In this document: piece after piece, positions 2,877-19,484 of the stretch
Layout of the letters: the number at the start of each line of letters is the position of its first letter
Position numbering within the stretch: the stretch's first letter is position 1
Made by a program: the position numbers and the translations under genes
UHGV virus genome: UHGV-0172637
DNA: 43,019 nt
Direction: 5' to 3' (one strand)
Source: a virus
The notes under the pieces: model-generated
Databases searched by the model: none
The model's input: the letters and a program-made list of their open reading frames with translations, nothing else
What the model was told of the DNA's origin: nothing

Positions 2877-4115
2877 TTACTTTTTCATCACCTTTTCAGC
2901 AACACCAGCAATTGCCTCAAGTCCATCAAACATTGCTGGTATATTATTTTCATTGTTTTGTATTGGACTAAAAATAAGAGCATCAAAAGAGTCTAAAACT
3001 TTCTCAATAGCAATGTTATTTTTTCTTCTATATTCAACATACCCATCAATGAAAGCACATAAGCTGAGCCTTAGATCAATCTGCATAAGTTGAGTTCTTA
3101 AAGCCTTCGCTTCTAAATATGAAAGTCTGAAAAAATAAATAATTGCCATCTCAATAGTAATAAATGGGAATAGAATGAAGATCGCTGAATAATCTTTAGG
3201 ATATAAATCAGGGAAAGAAAAATGGATTATTACAGCAATCACAGGAGCAATGAATACAGTCCCAAATAAATTTTTATAATTCATTTCAGTTGTAGAAAGC
3301 TCTTTCTCTTTTTTTTCTTTTATTATGTTAAAACCAGAGCTTAACCCAACAAAATTATACTCTGATTTTAAATTTCTCACACGCTCCTCTAGTGCCTTAA
3401 TTTCATCCCTTGATTCATCCACGTATTTTAAATTAGCATCTGCTTCTAGTTTTCCATCTACAATAGCTTTTTTAATGTCATTATAATTATCAGATATTAA
3501 TGATATGGATGCTTTAGTGTCTTTGTTAATTTTATCAATAGCCAAATCTAAGTTGCTAGAAATTTCATCGAGAAACTTCCGTTTGTTTTCGTCGAGGTCT
3601 GATATAAAGTTTCTAGCATCAGTTAGTTTGTTACTGTTTAGTAACCACTTCATAAGTGAAATAGGTAGTTTGTCTCGAATCCATGAAAATTGGTATTTAC
3701 CTTCATTATCCTTGAAAGTGTTTTCTAATAATGTCAATTTGCTGTCTGTGATAAAGTTAGGCGTGATAATGGAACGAGTGCCTGTCCAATAATAGTACTC
3801 GTACAATACTCTTAACAAGGTTGACAAAAAATCAATCTTGTCTTTCTTGTAATCGTCAACTTGAAATTCCATGTGCAACAATATATTGTCTTGATTAAAA
3901 CCTGTATTCTCATCTAAATGTTGTGGGTTGTTATTTATTATTGATATAAAAGTCGACCATGCTGAGTCCAATGTAGTATAGAATAAAGATATGCTATTAT
4001 CTTTCTTTTTGGCGGATTTCTTGGACATTTCTTCAAACCTAATAAGATCTCTACTAATTATAGTATTTGTTTCCTTTATTGAATTAAGTATTTTATTATC
4101 GCTATATAGTCCCAT
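2877..4115 (-). CDS. Hypothetical membrane-anchored protein (coiled-coil region, two C-terminal TM helices), AT-rich accessory gene
   Basis: 412 aa; Lys/Asn/Ile-rich, visibly AT-rich DNA; hydrophobic segments LFGTVFIAPVIAVIIHF and YSAIFILFPFITIEMAIIYFF; heptad-like segment DESRDEIKALEERVRNLKSE. Confidence 0.6.
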   Translation of the reverse strand: MGLYSDNKILNSIKETNTIISRDLIRFEEMSKKSAKKKDNSISLFYTTLDSAWSTFISIINNNPQHLDENTGFNQDNILLHMEFQVDDYKKDKIDFLSTLLRVLYEYYYWTGTRSIITPNFITDSKLTLLENTFKDNEGKYQFSWIRDKLPISLMKWLLNSNKLTDARNFISDLDENKRKFLDEISSNLDLAIDKINKDTKASISLISDNYNDIKKAIVDGKLEADANLKYVDESRDEIKALEERVRNLKSEYNFVGLSSGFNIIKEKKEKELSTTEMNYKNLFGTVFIAPVIAVIIHFSFPDLYPKDYSAIFILFPFITIEMAIIYFFRLSYLEAKALRTQLMQIDLRLSLCAFIDGYVEYRRKNNIAIEKVLDSFDALIFSPIQNNENNIPAMFDGLEAIAGVAEKVMKK

Positions 4116-4193
4116 TTCTATACCTTTTTAAATATTATTATGTTTCATTGAGTGATGAGATATTTTACGATCAATTTTCCGGTTTTGCTTCAT

Positions 4194-4225
4194 AAAATCC
4201 CCACCCTTTCTAAGGAAGGGGATCT
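4194..4225 (-). terminator. Possible terminator separating the early-left operon from the AT-rich accessory gene
   Basis: Minus strand ATCCCC...GGGGAT stem followed by TTTT; long loop, so weak. Confidence 0.3.
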
Positions 4226-4232
4226 AAATCTC

Positions 4233-5060
4233 TTATGGTTTAAATATTCCGATGAAAGTGTCCACTGATTCACACTCGAACTTGCTGATCAGCAAATTGC
4301 GGAATTCATTGGCGATCTCTTCTTCCTGGGCTTCAAGTTGGACGATGCGCAGAACAAAGCAGGGTTCATCGCTGGTCAGCAGGCTGTTACGCAAGCTAAA
4401 ACGGCGTTCGCCCAGACCTTCATACGGTACACATTTGAATTCAAACGCCACAGGCATTACGTCTTTGCTGCTTGCTTCAACGCTTTGCATCAGCGATTTT
4501 TTACCAGCGAAATCACCAGTTTCATGGTCCTGCTGGGTTGCTTGTTGAATGGTGATACGACGCACAGCCTGAGCCGCCTGGGAAATCTGCATCGTATTAC
4601 CATCGGCATCAAACGCGAGCAGGTAGTCACTCCAGTCTTCCAGCCATTCAGCGATTTGCTTTTGCTTCAGACGTTGACCATCGATCTGCAGTAACGCGCG
4701 GAACGGGGCGGTTTTCTTCAGGGTGATTGAAGCAACATTATCGGCGTGACCGGGATTATCCAGGGTGCCGATGTTGAACACTGAACGAGCGGTCATGTTG
4801 TCAGCGTCAATGAAGCAACGGGCTGGCTCGCTGGCGCTGGCGTAACCTTTAGAATAACGTGCGAAGTCGTCAATACTGGTTGTGGTCATTGCGCCACGGA
4901 AGCGGAAACGCTCCAGAGAAAAGCGCTCAAGGCTTTCAACGCCAGTACCTTCTGGCAATAATGCGGTCGGGCAAGCCAGGTCCTGAATATCATTCAGGTG
5001 ATAACCGGAAAGAACCAGGTCTTTGACCTGCTTGAAGGTACCGCTGTCTAACTGAGACAT
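4233..5060 (-). CDS. Phage early protein, possibly YfdQ-like (DUF2303-type)
   Basis: 275 aa ORF in the early-left operon; length and position resemble the yfdP-yfdQ pair of E. coli cryptic prophage CPS-53 (recall only, not verified). Confidence 0.4.
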   Translation of the reverse strand: MSQLDSGTFKQVKDLVLSGYHLNDIQDLACPTALLPEGTGVESLERFSLERFRFRGAMTTTSIDDFARYSKGYASASEPARCFIDADNMTARSVFNIGTLDNPGHADNVASITLKKTAPFRALLQIDGQRLKQKQIAEWLEDWSDYLLAFDADGNTMQISQAAQAVRRITIQQATQQDHETGDFAGKKSLMQSVEASSKDVMPVAFEFKCVPYEGLGERRFSLRNSLLTSDEPCFVLRIVQLEAQEEEIANEFRNLLISKFECESVDTFIGIFKP

Positions 5061-8833: not shown

Positions 8834-9711
8834 CGTTAAACAAATATTGCCAGGCGCTGGTGGCACTACGTAGCCAACCAGCCCACGAATTGAAAGAAGT
8901 TGGCGATCAGTGGCGGACACCGGATCTGCTTTTTTGGGGTATCAACGCGCTATTTGGTCCATTAGTTCTGGACTTGTTTGCTGACGACGACAACGCGAAG
9001 TGCCCGGCATGGTACACCGCCGAAGATAACGCGCTGACACAGAACTGGTCTGAACGTCTGGATGAACTGGGCGGCGCGGCTTTTGCCAATCCTCCATATA
9101 GCCGCTCCCAGTATCACGACAAGCAGGCGATCACGGGTATGACACACATCATGAATCACACCATGGACATGCGTGAAAGAGGTGGTCGCTATATTTACCT
9201 GGTGAAGTCTGCCACAAGTGAAACATGGTGGCCGGAAGATGCCGATCACATCATGTTTATTCGTGGTCGTATTGGGTTCGATCTGCCTGTGTGGTTTGTA
9301 CCTGCTGACGAAAAACAGAAACCCACCAGCGCGTTTTTTGCCGGTGCCATAGCTGTATTCGATAAGTCGTGGCGGGGTGAGCGGTTCAGCTATATCAACC
9401 GCACAGAACTGGAGGAAAAAGGGCGGGCATTTATGGCTTTGGCTCAATTCGCCGTTGGTAAAGAGCAAACAATTGCAATGCAGGCAGCCAGGGAACCAGC
9501 AGCAACACCGGAAACTGAGTCACGAATCTGGCCTCTCGAGGTTGGTCTGGTGTTTAACCAGGTGGAAGGCGTTGATGTATTGAGCGAGGCCCAGCAGAAC
9601 AAACTGAAAGCCAACATCAATCAACTCTGGCTGGAACGAACGGCCACCAGCGAAATTATCACAATTGCGCGTGGTCTTGTTGGCAGCATGCAGGGGGTAA
9701 CCCATGCGTGA
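8830..9711 (+). CDS. Phage DNA N6-adenine methyltransferase (Dam-like) with C-terminal extension
   Basis: NPPY catalytic motif (FANPPYSRS); position in replication/nin region typical of phage orphan MTases. Confidence 0.75.
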   Translation: MTLNKYCQALVALRSQPAHELKEVGDQWRTPDLLFWGINALFGPLVLDLFADDDNAKCPAWYTAEDNALTQNWSERLDELGGAAFANPPYSRSQYHDKQAITGMTHIMNHTMDMRERGGRYIYLVKSATSETWWPEDADHIMFIRGRIGFDLPVWFVPADEKQKPTSAFFAGAIAVFDKSWRGERFSYINRTELEEKGRAFMALAQFAVGKEQTIAMQAAREPAATPETESRIWPLEVGLVFNQVEGVDVLSEAQQNKLKANINQLWLERTATSEIITIARGLVGSMQGVTHA

Positions 9712-11638
9712 GATTATCGTTGATAACTTTGCTGGTGGCGGTGGTGCATCAACGGGTATTGAACTGGCGATCGGACGCAGCGTGGATATTGCGATCAACC
9801 ACGACGAAAACGCCATTGCGATGCACAAGACGAACCACCCTGACACACTGCATTACTGTGAATCCGTATTTGACGTGGATCCGGTAGCCGCCACCGGCGG
9901 CAATCCTGTTGGCCTGGCATGGTTTAGCCCAGACTGCCGACACTTCTCAAAGGCCAAAGGCGCAAAGCCTGTGAAAAAAGAGATACGCGGTCTGGCCTGG
10001 ATCGTTCTGCGTTGGGCACTGGCGAAGCGACCGCGCGTGATGATGCTGGAGAACGTGGAAGAGTTTAAAACGTGGGGACCGCTGCTGGCCGATGAAATGC
10101 GTCCAGACCCTGCCCGCACTGGCGAAACATTCAATGCTTTTGTCGGCATGCTTTCCACTGGCATTCCTGCCGATCACCCGGCACTGGCGGAGGTCTGCGA
10201 ATTTCTTGCTATTGATCCTGGCAGCACGCAGGCCAAACAGCTGGTGGAAGGGCTTGGATATGATGTTGATTATCGCGAACTGCGCGCGTGTGATTACGGC
10301 GCGCCGACGATCCGCAAACGCTTCTTCATGGTTATGCGCTGCGATGGTTGCCCTATTCAGTGGCCTGTTGTAACCCATGGGGATCCCAAGTCACTGGAGG
10401 TGCAGAGCGGCAGGCTGATGCCATGGCGTACCGCTGCGGAATGTATCGACTGGAATGTTCCGGCTCTGTCCATCTTCGACCGCAAAAAACCGCTGGCGGA
10501 GAACACTCTGAAGCGGATCGCACGCGGCATACAGCGCTTTGTTATCGAAAGTGCGTCGCCGTTTATCGTGAAGTGCAACCACACGAGCTCAAAAAATGCG
10601 TATGACGCTTTTCGCGGACAGTCACTGAATGAGCCATTACAGACCATTACTAAAAAACTCGGCTACGCGTTAGCCGTTCCACACCTTACAAAATTCCGCA
10701 CTGGCGCAACCGGGCAGCCCGTTACCGAACCTGTTCCGACAGTAACCGCTGGCACGTCAAAACGCCCGGGCGGGAACGGGCATGCTCTCGGGATTGTTGA
10801 GGCTGCATTGACACCATTCCTGGCGGGTAATGGTGGTAGTGAATACCAGGCTAAACCGCGCCCGCTGAATAAACCTGCTCATACCATTCTGAAGCAATCC
10901 CGAGCCTGTCTTGTTGCGCCAGTGATAGCCCGCCAGTTTGGGGCCAGCGTCGGCCACCGTGCAGACGAACCGAGCGCAACCATCACCGCTGGTGGTGGAG
11001 GTAAATCTCAACTGGTAACGCCTACGCTGATTCAGATGGGTTATGGCGAACGACCTGGACAAGAACCGCGTGTGCTGCGACTGGATAACCCGCTGGGGAC
11101 CGTTACTGCAGGCGGAAATAAATTTGCGACGGTGAGCGCGTTCCTGGCGAAACACTACGGCGGTAACTATACGGGGCCGGGTGTCAGTATGGATGAACCC
11201 GCGCATTCAGTGACCACTGTCGACCATCATGCGGTAGTTGCCTCTCATCTGGTGAAACTGCGTGGAACATGCCGCGATGGGCAACGCCTTGATGTGCCAA
11301 TGCCAACAATCACTGCTGGTGGCCAACACGTGGGTGAGGTACGCACATTTCTCGAGACGTATTGCGGGGAAAGTGACGATGAATGGCTGGTAACGATCGA
11401 TGGGGTTAAATACCAGATCGTTGATATCGGAATGCGCATGTTGCAGCCGCATGAACTCTACAAAGCGCAGGGCTTCCCGGATGGTTACGTTATTGATCAG
11501 GACTACCGTGGAAATCGCTATGCAAAAGATAAGCAGGTAGCCCGCTGCGGTAATGCGGTACCACCACCATTCGCCAGGGCGCTGGTTGAGGCAAATCTTC
11601 CGGAACTGTGTGCAGTGCAACAGCAGGAGGTGGCATGA
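9704..11638 (+). CDS. DNA cytosine-5 methyltransferase, large form with repeated target-recognition-like segments
   Basis: Motif I FAGGGGAS, Cys motif SPDCRHFS, ENV motif MLENVEEF, RKRFFMV, C-terminal RCGNAV; five repeats of a P-x-P-T-[VI]-T-A-G-G-like segment in the variable region. Confidence 0.75.
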   Translation: MREIIVDNFAGGGGASTGIELAIGRSVDIAINHDENAIAMHKTNHPDTLHYCESVFDVDPVAATGGNPVGLAWFSPDCRHFSKAKGAKPVKKEIRGLAWIVLRWALAKRPRVMMLENVEEFKTWGPLLADEMRPDPARTGETFNAFVGMLSTGIPADHPALAEVCEFLAIDPGSTQAKQLVEGLGYDVDYRELRACDYGAPTIRKRFFMVMRCDGCPIQWPVVTHGDPKSLEVQSGRLMPWRTAAECIDWNVPALSIFDRKKPLAENTLKRIARGIQRFVIESASPFIVKCNHTSSKNAYDAFRGQSLNEPLQTITKKLGYALAVPHLTKFRTGATGQPVTEPVPTVTAGTSKRPGGNGHALGIVEAALTPFLAGNGGSEYQAKPRPLNKPAHTILKQSRACLVAPVIARQFGASVGHRADEPSATITAGGGGKSQLVTPTLIQMGYGERPGQEPRVLRLDNPLGTVTAGGNKFATVSAFLAKHYGGNYTGPGVSMDEPAHSVTTVDHHAVVASHLVKLRGTCRDGQRLDVPMPTITAGGQHVGEVRTFLETYCGESDDEWLVTIDGVKYQIVDIGMRMLQPHELYKAQGFPDGYVIDQDYRGNRYAKDKQVARCGNAVPPPFARALVEANLPELCAVQQQEVA

Positions 11639-13730: not shown

Positions 13731-14147
13731 GTGCGTGATATGCAGAAAGTTTTAGATTTATGGGGGGCGTGGGCCGCGAGCGATTCATGCCATGTTGATT
13801 ACTCTCCGATTGCTGCGGGCTTCAAAGGGTTACTGCCGCAAACAAGTAAAACTCGGATTCAATGCACTGATGATGATGGGCTGGTAATAGAGGGGTGTAT
13901 GTCGCGCCTTAGCAGAAAGAGGCCATACGATTATCAACTATTGGTCGTGCACTATATCTACCGGGTGTCCAAGCGCCAAATGGCAAAGCACCGAAAGAAA
14001 AGTGAAAAGCAGATCCGAATCGAAATGCAACTGGCGGAAGGGTTTATTGAAGGGTGTCTGTCTATGCTGGATATCCCCCTTGAGATGGATCTGGTTGTAT
14101 ATGTGGAAAATCATCAAAAAAGCACTAGTGCGGTCCGCACTTTTTGA
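13731..14147 (+). CDS. Late-gene antiterminator Q
   Basis: 138 aa; N-terminal VLDLWGAWAA... and Cys cluster resemble lambdoid Q-family antiterminators; located just upstream of late region. Confidence 0.7.
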   Translation: MRDMQKVLDLWGAWAASDSCHVDYSPIAAGFKGLLPQTSKTRIQCTDDDGLVIEGCMSRLSRKRPYDYQLLVVHYIYRVSKRQMAKHRKKSEKQIRIEMQLAEGFIEGCLSMLDIPLEMDLVVYVENHQKSTSAVRTF

Positions 14148-14254
14148 TATAAGGTGTTAAGAGTGGTCACTAAGACACGGACTTAAAACGCTTTCTAACC
14201 TCGCTGCGGCGGGGTTTTCTGTTATGATAGCTTTCTTTCTATAGGTGAGTTGTC

Positions 14255-14917
14255 ATGGATATAATTCATTTACTGGAAGTGCTTAATCCTCTCGAAAACG
14301 TTGTAACTGTCAAAATCGACAACGACAAAAACTTGTTTACGATGTTTGGCGATTTATTAATTACATTAGCCCCTGCAGTGATAGCGGGTATTGCGATGGT
14401 GGTTTCTTATAAGCAATTCAAAACGAGCTTACACAGGCAAAGTGAGCAATTTGAACTGGGAATAAAGCAACAAATTAATACATTAAAAATTAATACACAA
14501 CTTGCTACTGAAGTTGAATTGATGAAAGAGGATTGCAAGGCATTAAGAGAAACTTATGTTAGCTATTTAGATGTCACTTCATTACTTTATAGAAGCCAAT
14601 GCGATTTTAAAAATTATAGTGGTCAATTTGATGATAATGCAATTAAGAGTCGCAATATAGCACATGAAAATATAATGACCTACAGTAGTAAGTTTTTGCA
14701 AACTAGAATTTTATTATTCTCTTATCTTAATCTTGAAATTCCCGAAGAGAAAAAACTACAAGAATGTATTATTGCTATTGGTGACTGTGCATTTAATGGA
14801 GACGGAACTGGGAAAGATATTGGAAAGTTACAAGGTGATGGTGCGACTCTCTGCTTTGAGTTAATAAAGAGGAAACGCCAGGCAATCTTCAGTTTGGTAG
14901 AAACCATTACCGAATAA
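14255..14917 (+). CDS. Hypothetical single-pass membrane protein, AT-rich accessory gene
   Basis: 220 aa; TM helix LLITLAPAVIAGIAMVVSY; visibly AT-rich; RBS TAGGTGAG; sits between Q and the lysis genes. Confidence 0.6.
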   Translation: MDIIHLLEVLNPLENVVTVKIDNDKNLFTMFGDLLITLAPAVIAGIAMVVSYKQFKTSLHRQSEQFELGIKQQINTLKINTQLATEVELMKEDCKALRETYVSYLDVTSLLYRSQCDFKNYSGQFDDNAIKSRNIAHENIMTYSSKFLQTRILLFSYLNLEIPEEKKLQECIIAIGDCAFNGDGTGKDIGKLQGDGATLCFELIKRKRQAIFSLVETITE

Positions 14918-15093
14918 ATACTGAAATTTCTTGCCTCTGTTGATAGAGGTATCCCGCTGTGAAAATGGGCGGCTGGTGGGTGTTAGCGCACCCGGCCAGC
15001 CATCAGCTCATGCTTTCAGGTCACAAGCTAACCAAGGCCCACTGCTTTAGCGCAAAAGCAACGTGAGCCTATCAGAGTTACGCTTACTAATCT

Positions 15094-16146
15094 ATGAAAA
15101 ATACTGTAAAAATAAACAGTGTTGAGTTAATCAACGCTGACAGCCTGCATTACGTCGCCACCCTCCCGGATAACTCTATTGATCTGATAGTTACGGATCC
15201 GCCTTACTTCAAAGTGAAGCCCAACGGCTGGGACAACCAATGGAAGGGGGACGAGGACTACTTACGCTGGCTTGATAGCTGTCTGGCTGAGTATGCTCGC
15301 GTTCTTAAACCTGCTGACAGCATTTACCTGTTTTGTGGTCACCGACTGGCCTCAAATATAGAGATTATGATGCGTGCCCGGTTCAACGTTTTGAATCACA
15401 TCATTTGGGCAAAACCATCGGGTCGCTGGAATGGATGTAACAAAGAAAGCCTGCGTGCGTACTTTCCATCTACGGAACGGATTTTGTTTGCTGAGCTCTA
15501 TCTTGGGCCGTACACAGGTAAAGAGGATGTTTACGAAAGGAAAAGCACAGAGCTAAAGCAGCACATTATGACGCCGCTGATTGATTACTTCCGTAATGCC
15601 CGTGAATCACTGGGTGTCAGCTCGAAAGAAATAGCTGAGGCAACCGGAAAGAAAAACATGGCGTCACACTGGTTCGGTGCAAGCCAATGGCAACTACCAA
15701 ATGAAGTGGACTATAGAAAATTGCAGGAACTGTTCACTCGGATCGCTATCGATAAGCACATTCAGCAGAAGCTTGAACATCCTCACCACCAGCTGATAGC
15801 TACCTATCAGTCATTAAACCGCAAGTATTCAGAATTGCTGGAGGAATACAAAACCCTCCGGCGCTGCTTTTCTGTTTCCGCTCTTGTTCCGTATACCGAC
15901 GTATGGACGCATAAACCTGTTCAGTTTTATCCAGGCAAACATCCATGCGAAAAACCTGCCGACATGCTGAAGCAGATCATTAGCGCCAGCAGCAGGCCGG
16001 GGGATATTGTTGCCGATTTCTTTATGGGCTCTGGTTCAACTGTGAAAGCAGCAATAGAACTTGGCCGTCGGGCGATCGGCGTAGAACTGGAGGAAGACAG
16101 GTTTATACAGACCACCGAAGAGGTGGAAAAACTGAAAAAATCATAA
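15094..16146 (+). CDS. DNA methyltransferase, beta-class (N6-adenine or N4-cytosine)
   Basis: DPPY motif near N-terminus (LIVTDPPYF) and SAM-binding FFMGSGST near C-terminus (beta-class motif order); third MTase in the prophage. Confidence 0.7.
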   Translation: MKNTVKINSVELINADSLHYVATLPDNSIDLIVTDPPYFKVKPNGWDNQWKGDEDYLRWLDSCLAEYARVLKPADSIYLFCGHRLASNIEIMMRARFNVLNHIIWAKPSGRWNGCNKESLRAYFPSTERILFAELYLGPYTGKEDVYERKSTELKQHIMTPLIDYFRNARESLGVSSKEIAEATGKKNMASHWFGASQWQLPNEVDYRKLQELFTRIAIDKHIQQKLEHPHHQLIATYQSLNRKYSELLEEYKTLRRCFSVSALVPYTDVWTHKPVQFYPGKHPCEKPADMLKQIISASSRPGDIVADFFMGSGSTVKAAIELGRRAIGVELEEDRFIQTTEEVEKLKKS

Positions 16147-16291
16147 CGATCACCACGCTTCCCCGTTGCTGTGGTGATCACCATCTTCAGGCACCGGGAA
16201 TCATCCTTAATTTTTACTTGAACATAAGAGCCAGGTTGCCTGATCCCCTTCAATCACACACAGCGCCATCCGAAAAATCGGAGGTGAGGCT

Positions 16292-16570
16292 ATGACCAGA
16301 ATGAGCACCATTTACAGCAGACTTTCATATGGAACAGGAACCACGCTGACCGGCTGCGGTGTATCAGCGAAGGCATATGCCGAAACAGCTAAAACAGCAA
16401 AAGAGGTGTCCTGGATGTTAGCCGACAGAATTGCAGGGTTAAGCCTGAGCGACTGGGCAATTATCGTCGGTATCGCATGCACCGTTATCACCTGTGCAGT
16501 GAACTGGTATTACAGGAAAAAGGAAAGGGAGGATCGGCTTAATGGCAATGTCACCAAAGCTGAAGAATAA
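16292..16570 (+). CDS. Holin with dual-start motif
   Basis: 92 aa; Met1-Thr-Arg-Met4 dual start, hydrophobic segment LSDWAIIVGIACTVITCAVNWYY, charged C-terminus; first gene of lysis cassette. Confidence 0.7.
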   Translation: MTRMSTIYSRLSYGTGTTLTGCGVSAKAYAETAKTAKEVSWMLADRIAGLSLSDWAIIVGIACTVITCAVNWYYRKKEREDRLNGNVTKAEE

Positions 16571-17090
16571 ACTGAGCGCAGCGGTCGTTGGTTTGATTCT
16601 TGCGGGGGCTTCTGCACCTGTGATTCTCGATCAGTTTCTTAATGAGAAAGAGGGTAATAGCCTTACGGCATACCGCGACGGTGGCGGACTCTGGACCATT
16701 TGCCGTGGCGCCACGATGGTTGATGGTAAGCCAGTAGTTCAGGGCATGAAGCTGTCTTCTGAGAAATGCGCCCAGGTAAACGCCATAGAACGCGACAAAG
16801 CGCTGGCGTGGGTTGAGCGAAGTATTAAGGTACCACTGACCGAACCACAGAAAGCCGGGATCGCGTCTTTCTGCCCATATAACATTGGCCCCGGAAAATG
16901 TTTCCCATCTACGTTCTATAAGCGGATCAATGCGGGCGACCGTAAAGGAGCCTGTGAAGCGATCCGCTGGTGGATTAAAGACGGTGGCCGCGATTGTCGC
17001 CTGACCAAAGGCCAGAAAAATGGGTGCTATGGTCAGGTAGAGCGGCGAGATCAGGAAAGCGCGCTGGCGTGCTGGGGGATAGACCAGTGA
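16542..17090 (+). CDS. Endolysin, phage lysozyme with N-terminal signal-arrest-release (SAR) domain
   Basis: N-terminal weakly hydrophobic Gly/Ala-rich segment LSAAVVGLILAGASAPVIL followed by lysozyme-like catalytic region (E...D...T motif: EGNSLTAYRDGGGLWTICRG). Confidence 0.8.
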   Translation: MAMSPKLKNKLSAAVVGLILAGASAPVILDQFLNEKEGNSLTAYRDGGGLWTICRGATMVDGKPVVQGMKLSSEKCAQVNAIERDKALAWVERSIKVPLTEPQKAGIASFCPYNIGPGKCFPSTFYKRINAGDRKGACEAIRWWIKDGGRDCRLTKGQKNGCYGQVERRDQESALACWGIDQ

Positions 17091-17650
17091 ACAGAAGTCT
17101 CGTTTTTGTTGGGATGGCAGCTATCATCTTCATCGCGGTGCTCTGTGTGCTGCTGGCCCGCAGTAATGCCGCGTTGGCCACGTCAGAGAGCGACAACCGG
17201 GTACTGCGTAGCGACAACGCGCTACAGACGGCGGTGATAACTACTCAGGCCTTCAACTTCAACCGGTTTAACCAGATAGCAGAGAATACCAACCACCTTA
17301 ATTCGCTAATAGATGCTGGAACAGAGAAAACCATCATTGAATACCGGGAGATTTTACGACGTGAAAAAACCTGTGATTTGCCTGTTCCTGCTGATGTCGC
17401 TGGTGGGCTGCTCAACTACACGAACCGTTTACGTGCCAGTGCAATGTACTCAGATTCCGGGGACGCTGACACAGCCGGTGATAGTCCCATTGCCTCCCGC
17501 GCGCTGACGTACTGCCAAGCCGTTATGTGGATCAATCCTTTATTGTCGGCTATTGAAAAGGCGAATAATCAGTTGAGTAGCATACGGGATCTTGAACGAA
17601 ACAGAGGATTAGAGCTAAGAAAAAACGTGAGACCTAACGTGCGGTTTTAA
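17087..17650 (+). CDS. Spanin inner-membrane subunit (Rz-like)
   Basis: GTG start overlapping endolysin stop; N-terminal TM FVGMAAIIFIAVLCVLL; contains nested Rz1 in +1 frame. Confidence 0.7.
   Translation: MNRSLVFVGMAAIIFIAVLCVLLARSNAALATSESDNRVLRSDNALQTAVITTQAFNFNRFNQIAENTNHLNSLIDAGTEKTIIEYREILRREKTCDLPVPADVAGGLLNYTNRLRASAMYSDSGDADTAGDSPIASRALTYCQAVMWINPLLSAIEKANNQLSSIRDLERNRGLELRKNVRPNVRF
17361..17507 (+). CDS. Spanin outer-membrane lipoprotein subunit (Rz1-like), embedded in Rz
   Basis: 48 aa from GTG 17361; lipobox LVGC, proline-rich mature part; entirely nested in Rz reading frame +1. Confidence 0.7.
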   Translation: MKKPVICLFLLMSLVGCSTTRTVYVPVQCTQIPGTLTQPVIVPLPPAR

Positions 17651-17751: not shown

Positions 17752-18195
17752 ATGACTACACGGAATGATGTTATGTCAGAAGTTGCAGCGGAGCTAGCCG
17801 AGCAGACTTGGCCTGATTTTTATCCAAAAGGTGTTCCCCCAAAAACGGCTGTGGATGCCGAGGGTGAGTTTTATCGTTTGGTTAGAGCTAACCCCCCGAC
17901 TCCAAATTGTTTCCTTTCTACCCATGAAGAGTATCCGAATAGACATAAAAAATGTCGTGGAGAAGCTCTTCAGTGCGTATATGGCACATCTTTTTTTTCA
18001 GAAGAAAGAGGTGCTACAGATGCAAAGGCTAAGTTTCCAGCGGCGTTAGGTGATCGTACCGTCGCTAAAGGTAACGTAATGCCATTCATGGGGGTCATGA
18101 AAAAGACTTTTGCGGATCCTGCTCACTATACAATATGGCTTACGGTAAATTGTTCTATCCATGAGCATTTTGCTTGTTTAGGAGAAGGCGAATGA
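17752..18195 (+). CDS. Hypothetical protein A of two-gene cassette (Cys/His-rich, possible metal-binding)
   Basis: 147 aa; C68-x6-C75 and C134-x2-H-x-H-x2-C142 patterns; no recognisable enzymatic motif; stop overlaps start of next gene (ATGA). Confidence 0.55.
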   Translation: MTTRNDVMSEVAAELAEQTWPDFYPKGVPPKTAVDAEGEFYRLVRANPPTPNCFLSTHEEYPNRHKKCRGEALQCVYGTSFFSEERGATDAKAKFPAALGDRTVAKGNVMPFMGVMKKTFADPAHYTIWLTVNCSIHEHFACLGEGE

Positions 18196-19484
18196 GTAAC
18201 GTTTTTCTGCCTAATACAATGATGGGGACTCTGCGCTATAAAAGGGTGTATGAGTTTTTCGAAGAGCCTCGTTTCTTTTCAGCAGAGAATGAAGTTAGTT
18301 CATTATTTGTTGTTTATTGGATTGGTGAGGATGAGGACGCCGATAGCTGGTATGTTATCCCTGTATCGCCGACACGATTGGAGTTAATTGAAAGAAAAAG
18401 AATTGATTTGCGTTCAGTTTTAATTGATCAGGAACAGTCTTTTTTCTACGAAGTACGCGCTCCTTATGATCGGGAGGTTGCACCTACATGGAATGTTAAA
18501 GGCGTAGATGCCGTCTATGAAAATGCTTTACCAGCTCAGGGACTGTTTATTAGCTCTGTGGTTCCTGTTTTAGAAAATGGTCGAATCGGTGAAGCAATTA
18601 AGTATTCAACACATGAGATTCATTTAGAAAAAAGCTCAAAGAAAAGTGCTGGAAATTTGGTGCTAAGTCACGTTTCGAATGTGTGTGATAGCTTTAGTGC
18701 GTTATATGACAGTTTGCTGGAGTTTAGCGGTCTCAAAGACAAGCTACGTCCAGTTGATGCTCGTCCTGGTTCGTTCATCCTTTCATTCCAAGCTGAAAAG
18801 CTGAACGCCTATGAAGAGATTTTACGTGATTTGAGCGCTCTGATTGAGCGTCGTGCTGATATAGTCGATTTCATACAAAACAATGGGATAGATATCCAAG
18901 CCTTTTCTGATTTGCTTCAGTCTATTGTATCGACTGGAACAAATATGGAATTAAAAAGCAATCAGACTGGTGAGGTTATATTTCTGCTGACTAAAGCAGG
19001 AGCTGAGTTCTATCTTAGGGTAATCAGTAGGATGTCTGCACTTGCAGTTAGTGGTCATCAAATTCCGCAGGCAGATACTTTAGAAAAAGTTTTTAAAGTA
19101 GTTGAAGTCAAATGGAGTGGGGAGCCTTGTACTGTAGAGAATACAGGTTTGCAAGAAAGACACGTTTATTATTACCTACATGCTGCAAAGGTATTAGGGT
19201 TTCTGAATGCTAATGGCAATGTAACTGCGATGGGGCAAAAGTTAATTCAGTCTGGACAAGAGAACCAATATAAAATTGCTGCAAGATGCTTTGAGGTGAG
19301 CCATATTGGTTGGGCTTGGATTAACTGGTCAGAAGTTGAGAATTTATCTCAAATAGATCCAGATACAGCTGAGAAATTTTTACTTGAACAGTGCAATTCA
19401 TTAAGTAAAGACACTATAGCCAGAAGGTCGCGAACTCTTAGACATTGGGGCAAAGAGCTTAAGGAAAAATATACTCCGCTCTAA
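18192..19484 (+). CDS. Hypothetical protein B of two-gene cassette (430 aa)
   Basis: ATG 18192 preceded by GGAGAAGG RBS; visibly AT-rich; no P-loop or nuclease motif recognised. Confidence 0.6.
   Translation: MSNVFLPNTMMGTLRYKRVYEFFEEPRFFSAENEVSSLFVVYWIGEDEDADSWYVIPVSPTRLELIERKRIDLRSVLIDQEQSFFYEVRAPYDREVAPTWNVKGVDAVYENALPAQGLFISSVVPVLENGRIGEAIKYSTHEIHLEKSSKKSAGNLVLSHVSNVCDSFSALYDSLLEFSGLKDKLRPVDARPGSFILSFQAEKLNAYEEILRDLSALIERRADIVDFIQNNGIDIQAFSDLLQSIVSTGTNMELKSNQTGEVIFLLTKAGAEFYLRVISRMSALAVSGHQIPQADTLEKVFKVVEVKWSGEPCTVENTGLQERHVYYYLHAAKVLGFLNANGNVTAMGQKLIQSGQENQYKIAARCFEVSHIGWAWINWSEVENLSQIDPDTAEKFLLEQCNSLSKDTIARRSRTLRHWGKELKEKYTPL

Follow-up and report, generated by a model that had tools for sequence, protein, structure and literature searches.

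An AT-rich single-gene membrane-protein cassette beside an M.EcoGII-family methyltransferase in the Q-to-holin interval of a Citrobacter-type prophage

The virus genome UHGV-0172637, a stretch of 43,019 nucleotides (nt) analyzed here at its full length and hereafter called the window, carries two adjacent genes between an antiterminator gene and the lysis genes. The first, an open reading frame (ORF) at 14255–14917, encodes a protein of 220 amino acids (aa), and the second, at 15094–16146, encodes a 350-aa DNA methyltransferase (MTase). Both were found at the positions given in an earlier note on this DNA, both lie on the plus strand, and both start with ATG. Pfam matches agreed with the placement of the pair after Q and before the lysis genes: the gene for antiterminator Q (138 aa, 13731–14147, plus strand; PF06530 Phage_antitermQ, 3.4e-51; phrog_79) forms the left side of the slot described below, and the lysis cassette begins with the holin gene (16292–16570, plus strand; PF16080, 7.9e-14, and PF04971, 1.4e-06), followed by a lysozyme (endolysin) gene (16542–17090, plus strand; PF00959). 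Genes for RusA, Ant, DUF968, and Q lie 5′ of the interval and those for the holin, lysozyme, and spanins lie 3′ of it; the interval forms the leader region of the late operon in a lambdoid prophage. The two adjacent genes are unrelated rather than a functional pair, and both simply sit in the short stretch between Q and the holin.

The first gene is AT-rich, as the earlier note had described it, with a G+C content (GC) of 0.29 to 0.34 in 300-nt windows over the ORF versus approximately 0.46 to 0.50 in the flanks; over whole genes, GC is 0.34 for the 220-aa ORF and 0.47 for both Q and the MTase. The reading frame can be taken as a real gene because it has 29 homologous clusters and a ratio of nonsynonymous to synonymous substitution rates (dN/dS) of 0.18 versus its closest relative, with all 9 nonsynonymous differences falling in the bundle described next. 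The protein is laid out as an N-terminal tail (residues 1–30), a transmembrane (TM) helix (31–52), a stalk helix (53–100), and a four-helix bundle (101–220). Consistent with the single TM segment noted earlier, residues 31–52 (FGDLLITLAPAVIAGIAMVVSY, encoded at 14345–14410 on the plus strand) are the sole hydrophobic segment on the Kyte-Doolittle scale, on which the 19-residue maximum is 2.2 at residue 43 and the next best value elsewhere is 1.16. The AlphaFold (AF2) model has a mean pLDDT (predicted local distance difference test) value of 76; it gives low confidence to the N-terminal tail (1–38), joins the TM segment and stalk in an unbroken helix spanning residues 28–121, and ends in an up-down four-helix bundle with pLDDT above 90. 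Across the family, mean pairwise identity is 71% in the N-terminal tail, 59% in the TM segment, 63% in the stalk, and 36% in the bundle. For a class-B relative whose bundle is only approximately 20% identical, AF2 returned the same architecture with the same confidence, including bundle pLDDT above 90, and because this architecture is kept, the bundle as modeled is a single, greatly diverged domain rather than a swapped one. The product is thus predicted to be a single-pass inner-membrane protein. Net charge in the family is −1 to −3 before the TM segment and +1 to +3 after it, which slightly favors an N-out, C-in topology, weakly predicted, with the bundle in the cytoplasm.

Neither Pfam, PHROGs, PADLOC, nor NCBIfam matched the 220-aa protein above noise, and ten of its most distant relatives likewise gave nothing above noise in Pfam and NCBIfam scans. 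Structure search retrieved only generic helical-bundle folds. Four-helix-bundle sensor domains of chemoreceptors and sensor kinases (Tar/Tsr, PcaY, TorS, NarX, and QseE) were among the proteins compared, with identities of only 5 to 11%; unlike these, the 220-aa protein has no second TM segment and no signaling output domain, and its charge bias suggests a cytoplasmic rather than a periplasmic bundle. The up-down four-helix bundle is a very common fold, on which de novo designs score nearly as well as sensor domains, so the fold match says little about function. A periplasmic sensor domain of the 4HB_MCP type was considered and rejected, as the protein has one TM segment only, no output domain, and no Pfam match, leaving fold likeness alone. 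No account of the protein family, or of the slot itself, was found in literature searches.

The second gene is of a known kind in its usual place: an orphan member of the M.EcoGII family of beta-class N6-adenine DNA MTases and a backbone gene of the lineage. The earlier assignment to the beta class was borne out by a match to PF01555 (N6_N4_Mtase, 4.5e-44) over residues 29–337, by a PADLOC match to MTase_II (7.3e-141), and by the beta-class motif order, with DPPY at residues 35–38 (15196–15207) followed by FMGSG at residues 310–314 (16021–16035). M.EcoGII is a 349-aa beta-class enzyme of an Escherichia coli O104:H4 prophage that methylates adenine in any context; it is unexpressed in the lysogen and deleterious if constitutively expressed (PMC5778455). 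According to its describers, the enzyme has very many relatives, carried by E. coli prophages and by phages of enterobacteria (PMC5778455, PMC7544214, PMC6602927). Against sequences machine-read from the supplement of PMC11551740, in which small errors are present, the window MTase is identical to M.EcoGII at 257 of 348 positions (74%) from end to end, with two single-residue gaps near the C terminus and none in the central recognition region (160–237), and, again from end to end, shares 82% of its residues with Anc291, a reconstructed ancestor. The enzyme resembles M.EcoGII and M.EcoGI in length (350 versus 349 aa), in the order of DPPY, central recognition region, and FxGxG, and in being prophage-borne without a cognate nuclease. 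It differs from them in belonging to a Citrobacter-type prophage rather than one of E. coli, in being known from sequence alone, and in that the usual upstream 63-aa ORF is replaced by the 220-aa cassette.

The MTase is under purifying selection (dN/dS of 0.06), and DNA resembling the window MTase region occurs in approximately 1,100 of 5,426 complete E. coli genomes. SfV, mEp460, and E. coli Nissle have a homologue at the same site, after Q and before the holin, and from position 14948 onward the MTase-holin-lysozyme block is 96% identical to that of the E. coli Nissle 1917 prophage, in which the cargo upstream differs. A type II restriction-modification system was considered and set aside, as the MTase gene is flanked only by those for the holin and the 220-aa membrane protein, with no endonuclease; no ORF for a nuclease partner was found in 14148–16291, and Pfam and PADLOC found no nuclease domain there.

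The gene for the 220-aa protein makes up a cassette of its own, a rare moron that was acquired horizontally and sits in a variable cargo slot. The AT-rich cassette extends over approximately 14212–14955 on the plus strand and consists of a promoter-like element, a ribosome-binding site, the ORF, and a 38-nt tail. Its left edge is marked by a terminator-like hairpin (14197–14216; 8 pairs, 5 of them G-C, in our scan) with its T-tract, the whole spanning 14197–14226 on the plus strand and ending in the tail TTCTGTTATG. This hairpin is presumably a tR′-type terminator overridden by Q; a hairpin after Q is retained in other loci with differing stem sequences, and SfV has an annotated terminator at the corresponding place. 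Comparison with eight other loci put the left homology breakpoint at approximately 14212, in the T-tract (homology starts at 14194–14213), and the right one at approximately 14948–14958, where it coincides with the start of a conserved leader of the MTase gene. Base composition sets the cassette apart from its flanks in every allele of the family (GC of 0.33 to 0.37 versus 0.46 to 0.52 for Q and the MTase), and the gene is absent at this site from the close relatives Nissle, SfV, and mEp460. The cassette lacks a terminator of its own, one element of the classical moron definition: the stretch 14917–15094 contains no terminator-like site, only GC-rich hairpins without a U-tract. The interval holds no tRNA genes or known RNAs, and its best Rfam match (serC leader, 18.8 bits versus a gathering threshold of 35, E of 0.47) is noise.

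To survey the slot, an invariant 18-mer from the leader was used to retrieve 120 phage contigs, of which 114 reach the MTase and 94 carry the slot. In these contigs, Q and the leader are 200 to 3,335 nt apart and the intervening ORFs fall into 96 clusters; only 4 of the 94 carry a member of the 220-aa family, the other 90 having other cargo or none. A 63- to 64-aa ORF like orf47 of SfV lies just 5′ of the MTase leader in 84 of the 94 and is missing from the four contigs with the 220-aa family, as it is from the window. This ORF might be a regulator of the MTase; two examples, at 2293–2487 of locus L021 (SfV orf47) and 3797–3988 of locus L001, gave weak winged-helix matches (E of approximately 0.005). 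In Nissle the slot is occupied by an SDH/ClpP-like protease gene along with two small hypothetical genes, in SfV by the 64-aa ORF, and in mEp460 by a 308-aa gene on the other strand together with small ORFs. Recognized defense-type genes occupy the slots of IMG/VR loci L124 and L135. Occupants of the slot include a 386-aa NsnA/PD-T4-2_A-like GmrSD_N protein (PADLOC, 5.9e-45) beside a C5 methylase, a 229-aa HEPN_MAE_28990 protein (2.9e-17) of the Abi-type HEPN class, a DUF6731 protein, and two lipoproteins. The premise of the earlier note that the Q-to-holin interval is a site of toxin or defense cargo is thus supported by the NsnA/GmrSD_N-like, Abi-type HEPN, SDH protease, and lipoprotein genes found there.

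The 220-aa family itself is tiny, enterobacterial, and without a match to any curated family. A word-indexed search found 29 clusters, all annotated as hypothetical, down to 35% identity in Citrobacter, Kluyvera, Salmonella, and Enterobacter, with the closest relatives in Citrobacter. A profile search of 1.84 billion representative proteins yielded 34 clusters at 50% identity, all of approximately 200 to 240 aa, with an identical layout and no fused domains. The 220-aa ORF is absent from the 5,426 complete E. coli genomes and from 50,697 phage records. A scan of species-representative genomes yielded one locus, and genomic contexts were therefore gathered by exact-protein look-ups. Intact prophages of Citrobacter, Salmonella, and Enterobacter have the order Q, 220-aa family member, MTase, which is kept with each of two unrelated Q families and each of two distinct lysis cassettes. 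One very distant member has the reverse order, Q being followed by the MTase, the family member, another cargo gene, and the holin.

In four contexts, the family occurs without an intact MTase. The first is a prophage remnant of Enterobacter roggenkampii, seen in 22 contigs at a fixed chromosomal site, in which Q is truncated and the MTase is reduced to its first approximately 160 bp while the 220-aa gene is intact. The second is a stand-alone copy that adjoins cusCFBA, the cus copper-efflux operon, with no phage genes. The third, in locus L019, lies directly before the holin, and the fourth, next to a terminase operon, is encoded on the opposite strand. Two further observations concern other genes of these loci. 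Beside the family member of the E. roggenkampii remnant, locus L007 encodes at 3799–4929 (minus strand) a 257-aa protein with a weak RelA_SpoT match and a 118-aa partner, which may be a small-alarmone-synthetase toxin-antitoxin pair. In a Citrobacter braakii prophage, a HicA/HicB toxin-antitoxin pair lies between the MTase and the holin (L010, 7953–8591, minus strand), and a second insertion point therefore exists within the Q-to-holin interval.

The earlier note had offered two readings of the adjacent genes, an unusual modification-dependent module or two independent morons under Q-dependent late transcription. The first is not supported, as the MTase belongs to the M.EcoGII family and mostly occurs without the 220-aa gene (approximately 110 of 114 phage contigs and approximately 1,100 E. 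coli genomes), the 220-aa family occurs in the four contexts just described, and the two do not co-vary. MTases are 92 to 98% identical in loci where the 220-aa proteins are 41 to 59% identical, and in comparison with locus L006 the synonymous divergence (dS) is 1.43 for the N-terminal part of the ORF against 0.13 for the MTase. This contrast in dS and identity indicates that old cassette alleles have been exchanged between recently shared flanks. Of the second reading, independence is favored by the data. The MTase, however, is a conserved backbone gene with its own leader rather than a moron, and transcription of the 220-aa gene probably does not depend on Q read-through alone, since a promoter-like element accompanies the gene.

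This element, the extended −10-like sequence TGTTATGAT at 14220–14228 on the plus strand, lies 26 nt 5′ of the ATG and is a putative cassette promoter; an AGGTGAG sequence resembling a Shine-Dalgarno site follows at 14243–14249 (plus strand), 5 nt 5′ of the ATG. Every prophage copy has an extended −10-type TG(T/G)TATGAT just after the hairpin, 25 to 26 nt 5′ of the ATG, and distant, independent contexts have TGGTAAAAT (L017) and TGTTAAAAT (L020) 24 to 29 nt 5′ of it. Overall, TGnTAnnnT occurs 24 to 29 nt 5′ of the ATG in 9 of 10 loci and in at least three independent contexts, compared with a background expectation of 0.012 per 15-nt placement window. Family copies also persist in non-phage and antisense contexts, out of reach of Q. 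Given the conserved element and the copies on which Q cannot act, the promoter-like element appears to travel with the 220-aa gene, which is therefore probably expressed both in the lysogen and in the course of late transcription. A consensus scan for the pR′ promoter gave no convincing sigma-70 match in 14100–14196.

At the right edge of the slot lies the conserved 136-nt MTase leader (14958–15093, plus strand), with a GC-rich hairpin at 14967–15001. The leader is 88 to 99% identical where third codon positions of the MTase are 43 to 51% identical, outstripping the gene in conservation (among phages with such MTases the leader identity is 88 to 93%), and the MTase ATG lies at a fixed offset from it in all 114 contigs. 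Its predicted fold has a z-score of −2.8, and it has no Rfam match. A covariation analysis found a compensatory change in 1 of 38 pairs, the sequences being too conserved to inform. A small ORF within the leader was considered and rejected, as its frame is interrupted by TAG in many variants and the peptide lacks conservation. The leader is a conserved non-coding element that possibly controls a toxic methylase.

Several other features of the prophage deserve mention. The endolysin, which follows a P21/HP1-type holin, has an N-terminal hydrophobic anchor and is signal-anchor-release (SAR)-like; downstream, a lipoprotein-like ORF of 64 aa (17313–17507), which bears an LVGC lipobox, is nested in a 187-aa i-spanin-like gene (17087–17650). 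Together with the holin, 16542–17650 is a complete pinholin-type lysis set. In the early region, the window carries a 644-aa C5-cytosine methyltransferase-like gene (9704–11638), giving the prophage at least two DNA methylases, and in sister prophages a Dam-family gene (PF05869) also lies just 5′ of the counterpart of this gene. Directly after the lysis cassette and 5′ of the packaging genes, two AT-rich genes of 147 and 436 aa occupy 17752–19484. The 436-aa product matches DUF6575 (3.3e-40), and the pair gave weak PADLOC matches to PD-T4-10_A (1.9e-6) and PD-T4-10_B (2.5e-5), making it a candidate two-gene defense moron. In phi80, the equivalent position reportedly carries Tai-type defense genes (PMC11364771).

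As a whole, the locus is best explained, in our view with moderate confidence, as a backbone M.EcoGII-type MTase and an independent membrane moron side by side. By analogy with M.EcoGII, the MTase would be silent in the lysogen and would be transcribed late, once Q reads through the terminator at 14197–14216. It might then broadly methylate the adenines of progeny DNA before packaging and so blunt restriction in the next host; the nonspecific activity, the late timing, and the anti-restriction role are extrapolated from the family. The 220-aa cassette, which has a ribosome-binding site and a putative promoter of the extended −10 type, would be made in the lysogen and during late transcription alike. 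If the protein acts in conflict between phages, as proposed below, its variable bundle would determine specificity, with the conserved module of N-terminal tail, TM segment, and stalk acting at the membrane.

What the 220-aa protein does can be proposed only tentatively. A role in conflict between phages, either superinfection exclusion or abortive infection, is the most likely one, although we put it at below even, and we consider it because of the other occupants of the slot, the PD-T4-10-like pair in the same prophage, the retention of the gene in a decaying prophage, and an evolutionary pattern like that of gp15 and SieA. HK97 gp15, the first described moron, is an inner-membrane superinfection-exclusion protein with a conserved N-terminal part, a diverged C terminus, and non-phage homologues in Enterobacteriaceae (PMC3594210). 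Both it and the 220-aa gene are single-gene additions inside a late operon with a base composition unlike the flanks; both products are membrane-inserted with a conserved N-terminal part and a diverged C terminus, and the homologues of both are limited to Enterobacteriaceae, some of them outside prophages. The two have no sequence relationship, however, and gp15 is a small protein, encoded in the tail operon and shown to confer exclusion, whereas the window protein has 220 aa and a large helical bundle, lies after Q, and is known only through its sequence. P22 SieA, of which three types less than 30% identical have been described (PMC10883804), is likewise a prophage-encoded inner-membrane protein without a signal peptide and with deeply diverged alleles (types below 30% identity, compared with approximately 20% for the bundle of the 220-aa family). 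It differs in having approximately 162 aa and three predicted TM segments, in its genomic position, and in the lack of a sequence match. A little less likely again is the specific proposal that the 220-aa family is a new single-protein, membrane-anchored prophage anti-phage system whose bundle would recognize the invading phage.

A number of points weigh against these interpretations. The nonspecific activity of the MTase is extrapolated from an enzyme that is 74% identical, and the arguments for a defense role of the 220-aa protein come from position, architecture, and evolutionary pattern, with no PADLOC-DB v2 family matched at E of ≤0.01. The topology call is weak, as the charge bias is small. 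A general sigma-70 scan did not call the extended −10-like element, which has no −35 hexamer, and locus L013, the stand-alone copy, has TATACT without the TG. No intrinsic terminator separates the 220-aa ORF from the MTase, and transcription from the cassette promoter could in principle reach a MTase that is reportedly harmful when expressed. Finally, the 220-aa gene adjoins the MTase in every intact prophage examined from the nearer part of the family (identity of 35 to 96%), and in those phages a functional link may exist.

Alternatively, the 220-aa gene may be a lysogenic-conversion gene that benefits the host apart from phages, for example in envelope stress, colonization, or toxin resistance. 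Many morons serve the host in non-phage ways (PMC3594210), and this explanation would suit the moron features of the cassette, its intact retention in the 22 E. roggenkampii contigs as the prophage decays, and the stand-alone copy beside the cus copper-efflux operon. We nevertheless regard it as unlikely, as no signal, domain, or neighbor suggests a specific host function, and the deep allelic diversification of one domain fits conflict genes better than housekeeping-type fitness factors.

A role as a late-operon lysis accessory (holin-like, antiholin-like, or lysis-timing), made only under active Q, appears less probable still. In most contexts the gene does lie in the late transcript just 5′ of the lysis cassette, and directly before the holin in L019, and its size and single-pass layout are reminiscent of the class III holin T of T4, which has approximately 218 aa and one TM segment. 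However, the protein has no Pfam or PHROGs match to a holin, antiholin, spanin, or other lysis family, its fold matches are generic helical bundles, and a holin, a SAR-type endolysin, and both spanins are already encoded elsewhere in the window. Moreover, the family is found with three different lysis cassettes, and its copies persist in a prophage remnant, at a non-phage locus, and antisense to a terminase operon, each accompanied by the promoter-like element (without its TG in the stand-alone copy), where a constitutive holin would be intolerable. A holin or spanin role was accordingly set aside, there being no lysis-family match, a complete lysis set in the window, and family members outside phages.

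Least probable, and by a wide measure improbable, is a functional pair in which the membrane protein would act as a regulator or tether of the MTase, require it, be a modification-linked toxin or sensor, or provide through the cassette promoter a low-level supply of MTase in the lysogen: adjacency in Citrobacter, Salmonella, Enterobacter, Kluyvera-type, and Buttiauxella prophages, adjacency even where the order is reversed, and a likely co-transcription in the absence of an intervening terminator all speak for it, but the separate occurrence of each gene, the decay of the MTase beside an intact partner in the Enterobacter remnant, and the lack of co-variation speak against it, and a short shared slot open to many unrelated genes accounts for the adjacency.

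In sum, the MTase family is already known, and the position of the MTase is annotated in published phages, so that the proposed methylase-linked module reduces to a known phage methylase family in its usual place. The 220-aa protein is an uncharacterized member of a familiar class, the phage morons of a cargo hotspot, and its very small family has an evolutionary pattern like that of known membrane exclusion proteins. The stretch from the post-Q terminator to the MTase leader emerges as a well-defined cargo slot with sharp edges and dozens of occupants, some of them recognized defense genes, and is a cheap place to seek new prophage-borne functions. Were the proposed anti-phage role of the 220-aa family true, it would constitute a new system, driven in the lysogen by a promoter of its own and kept by hosts after the prophage has decayed.

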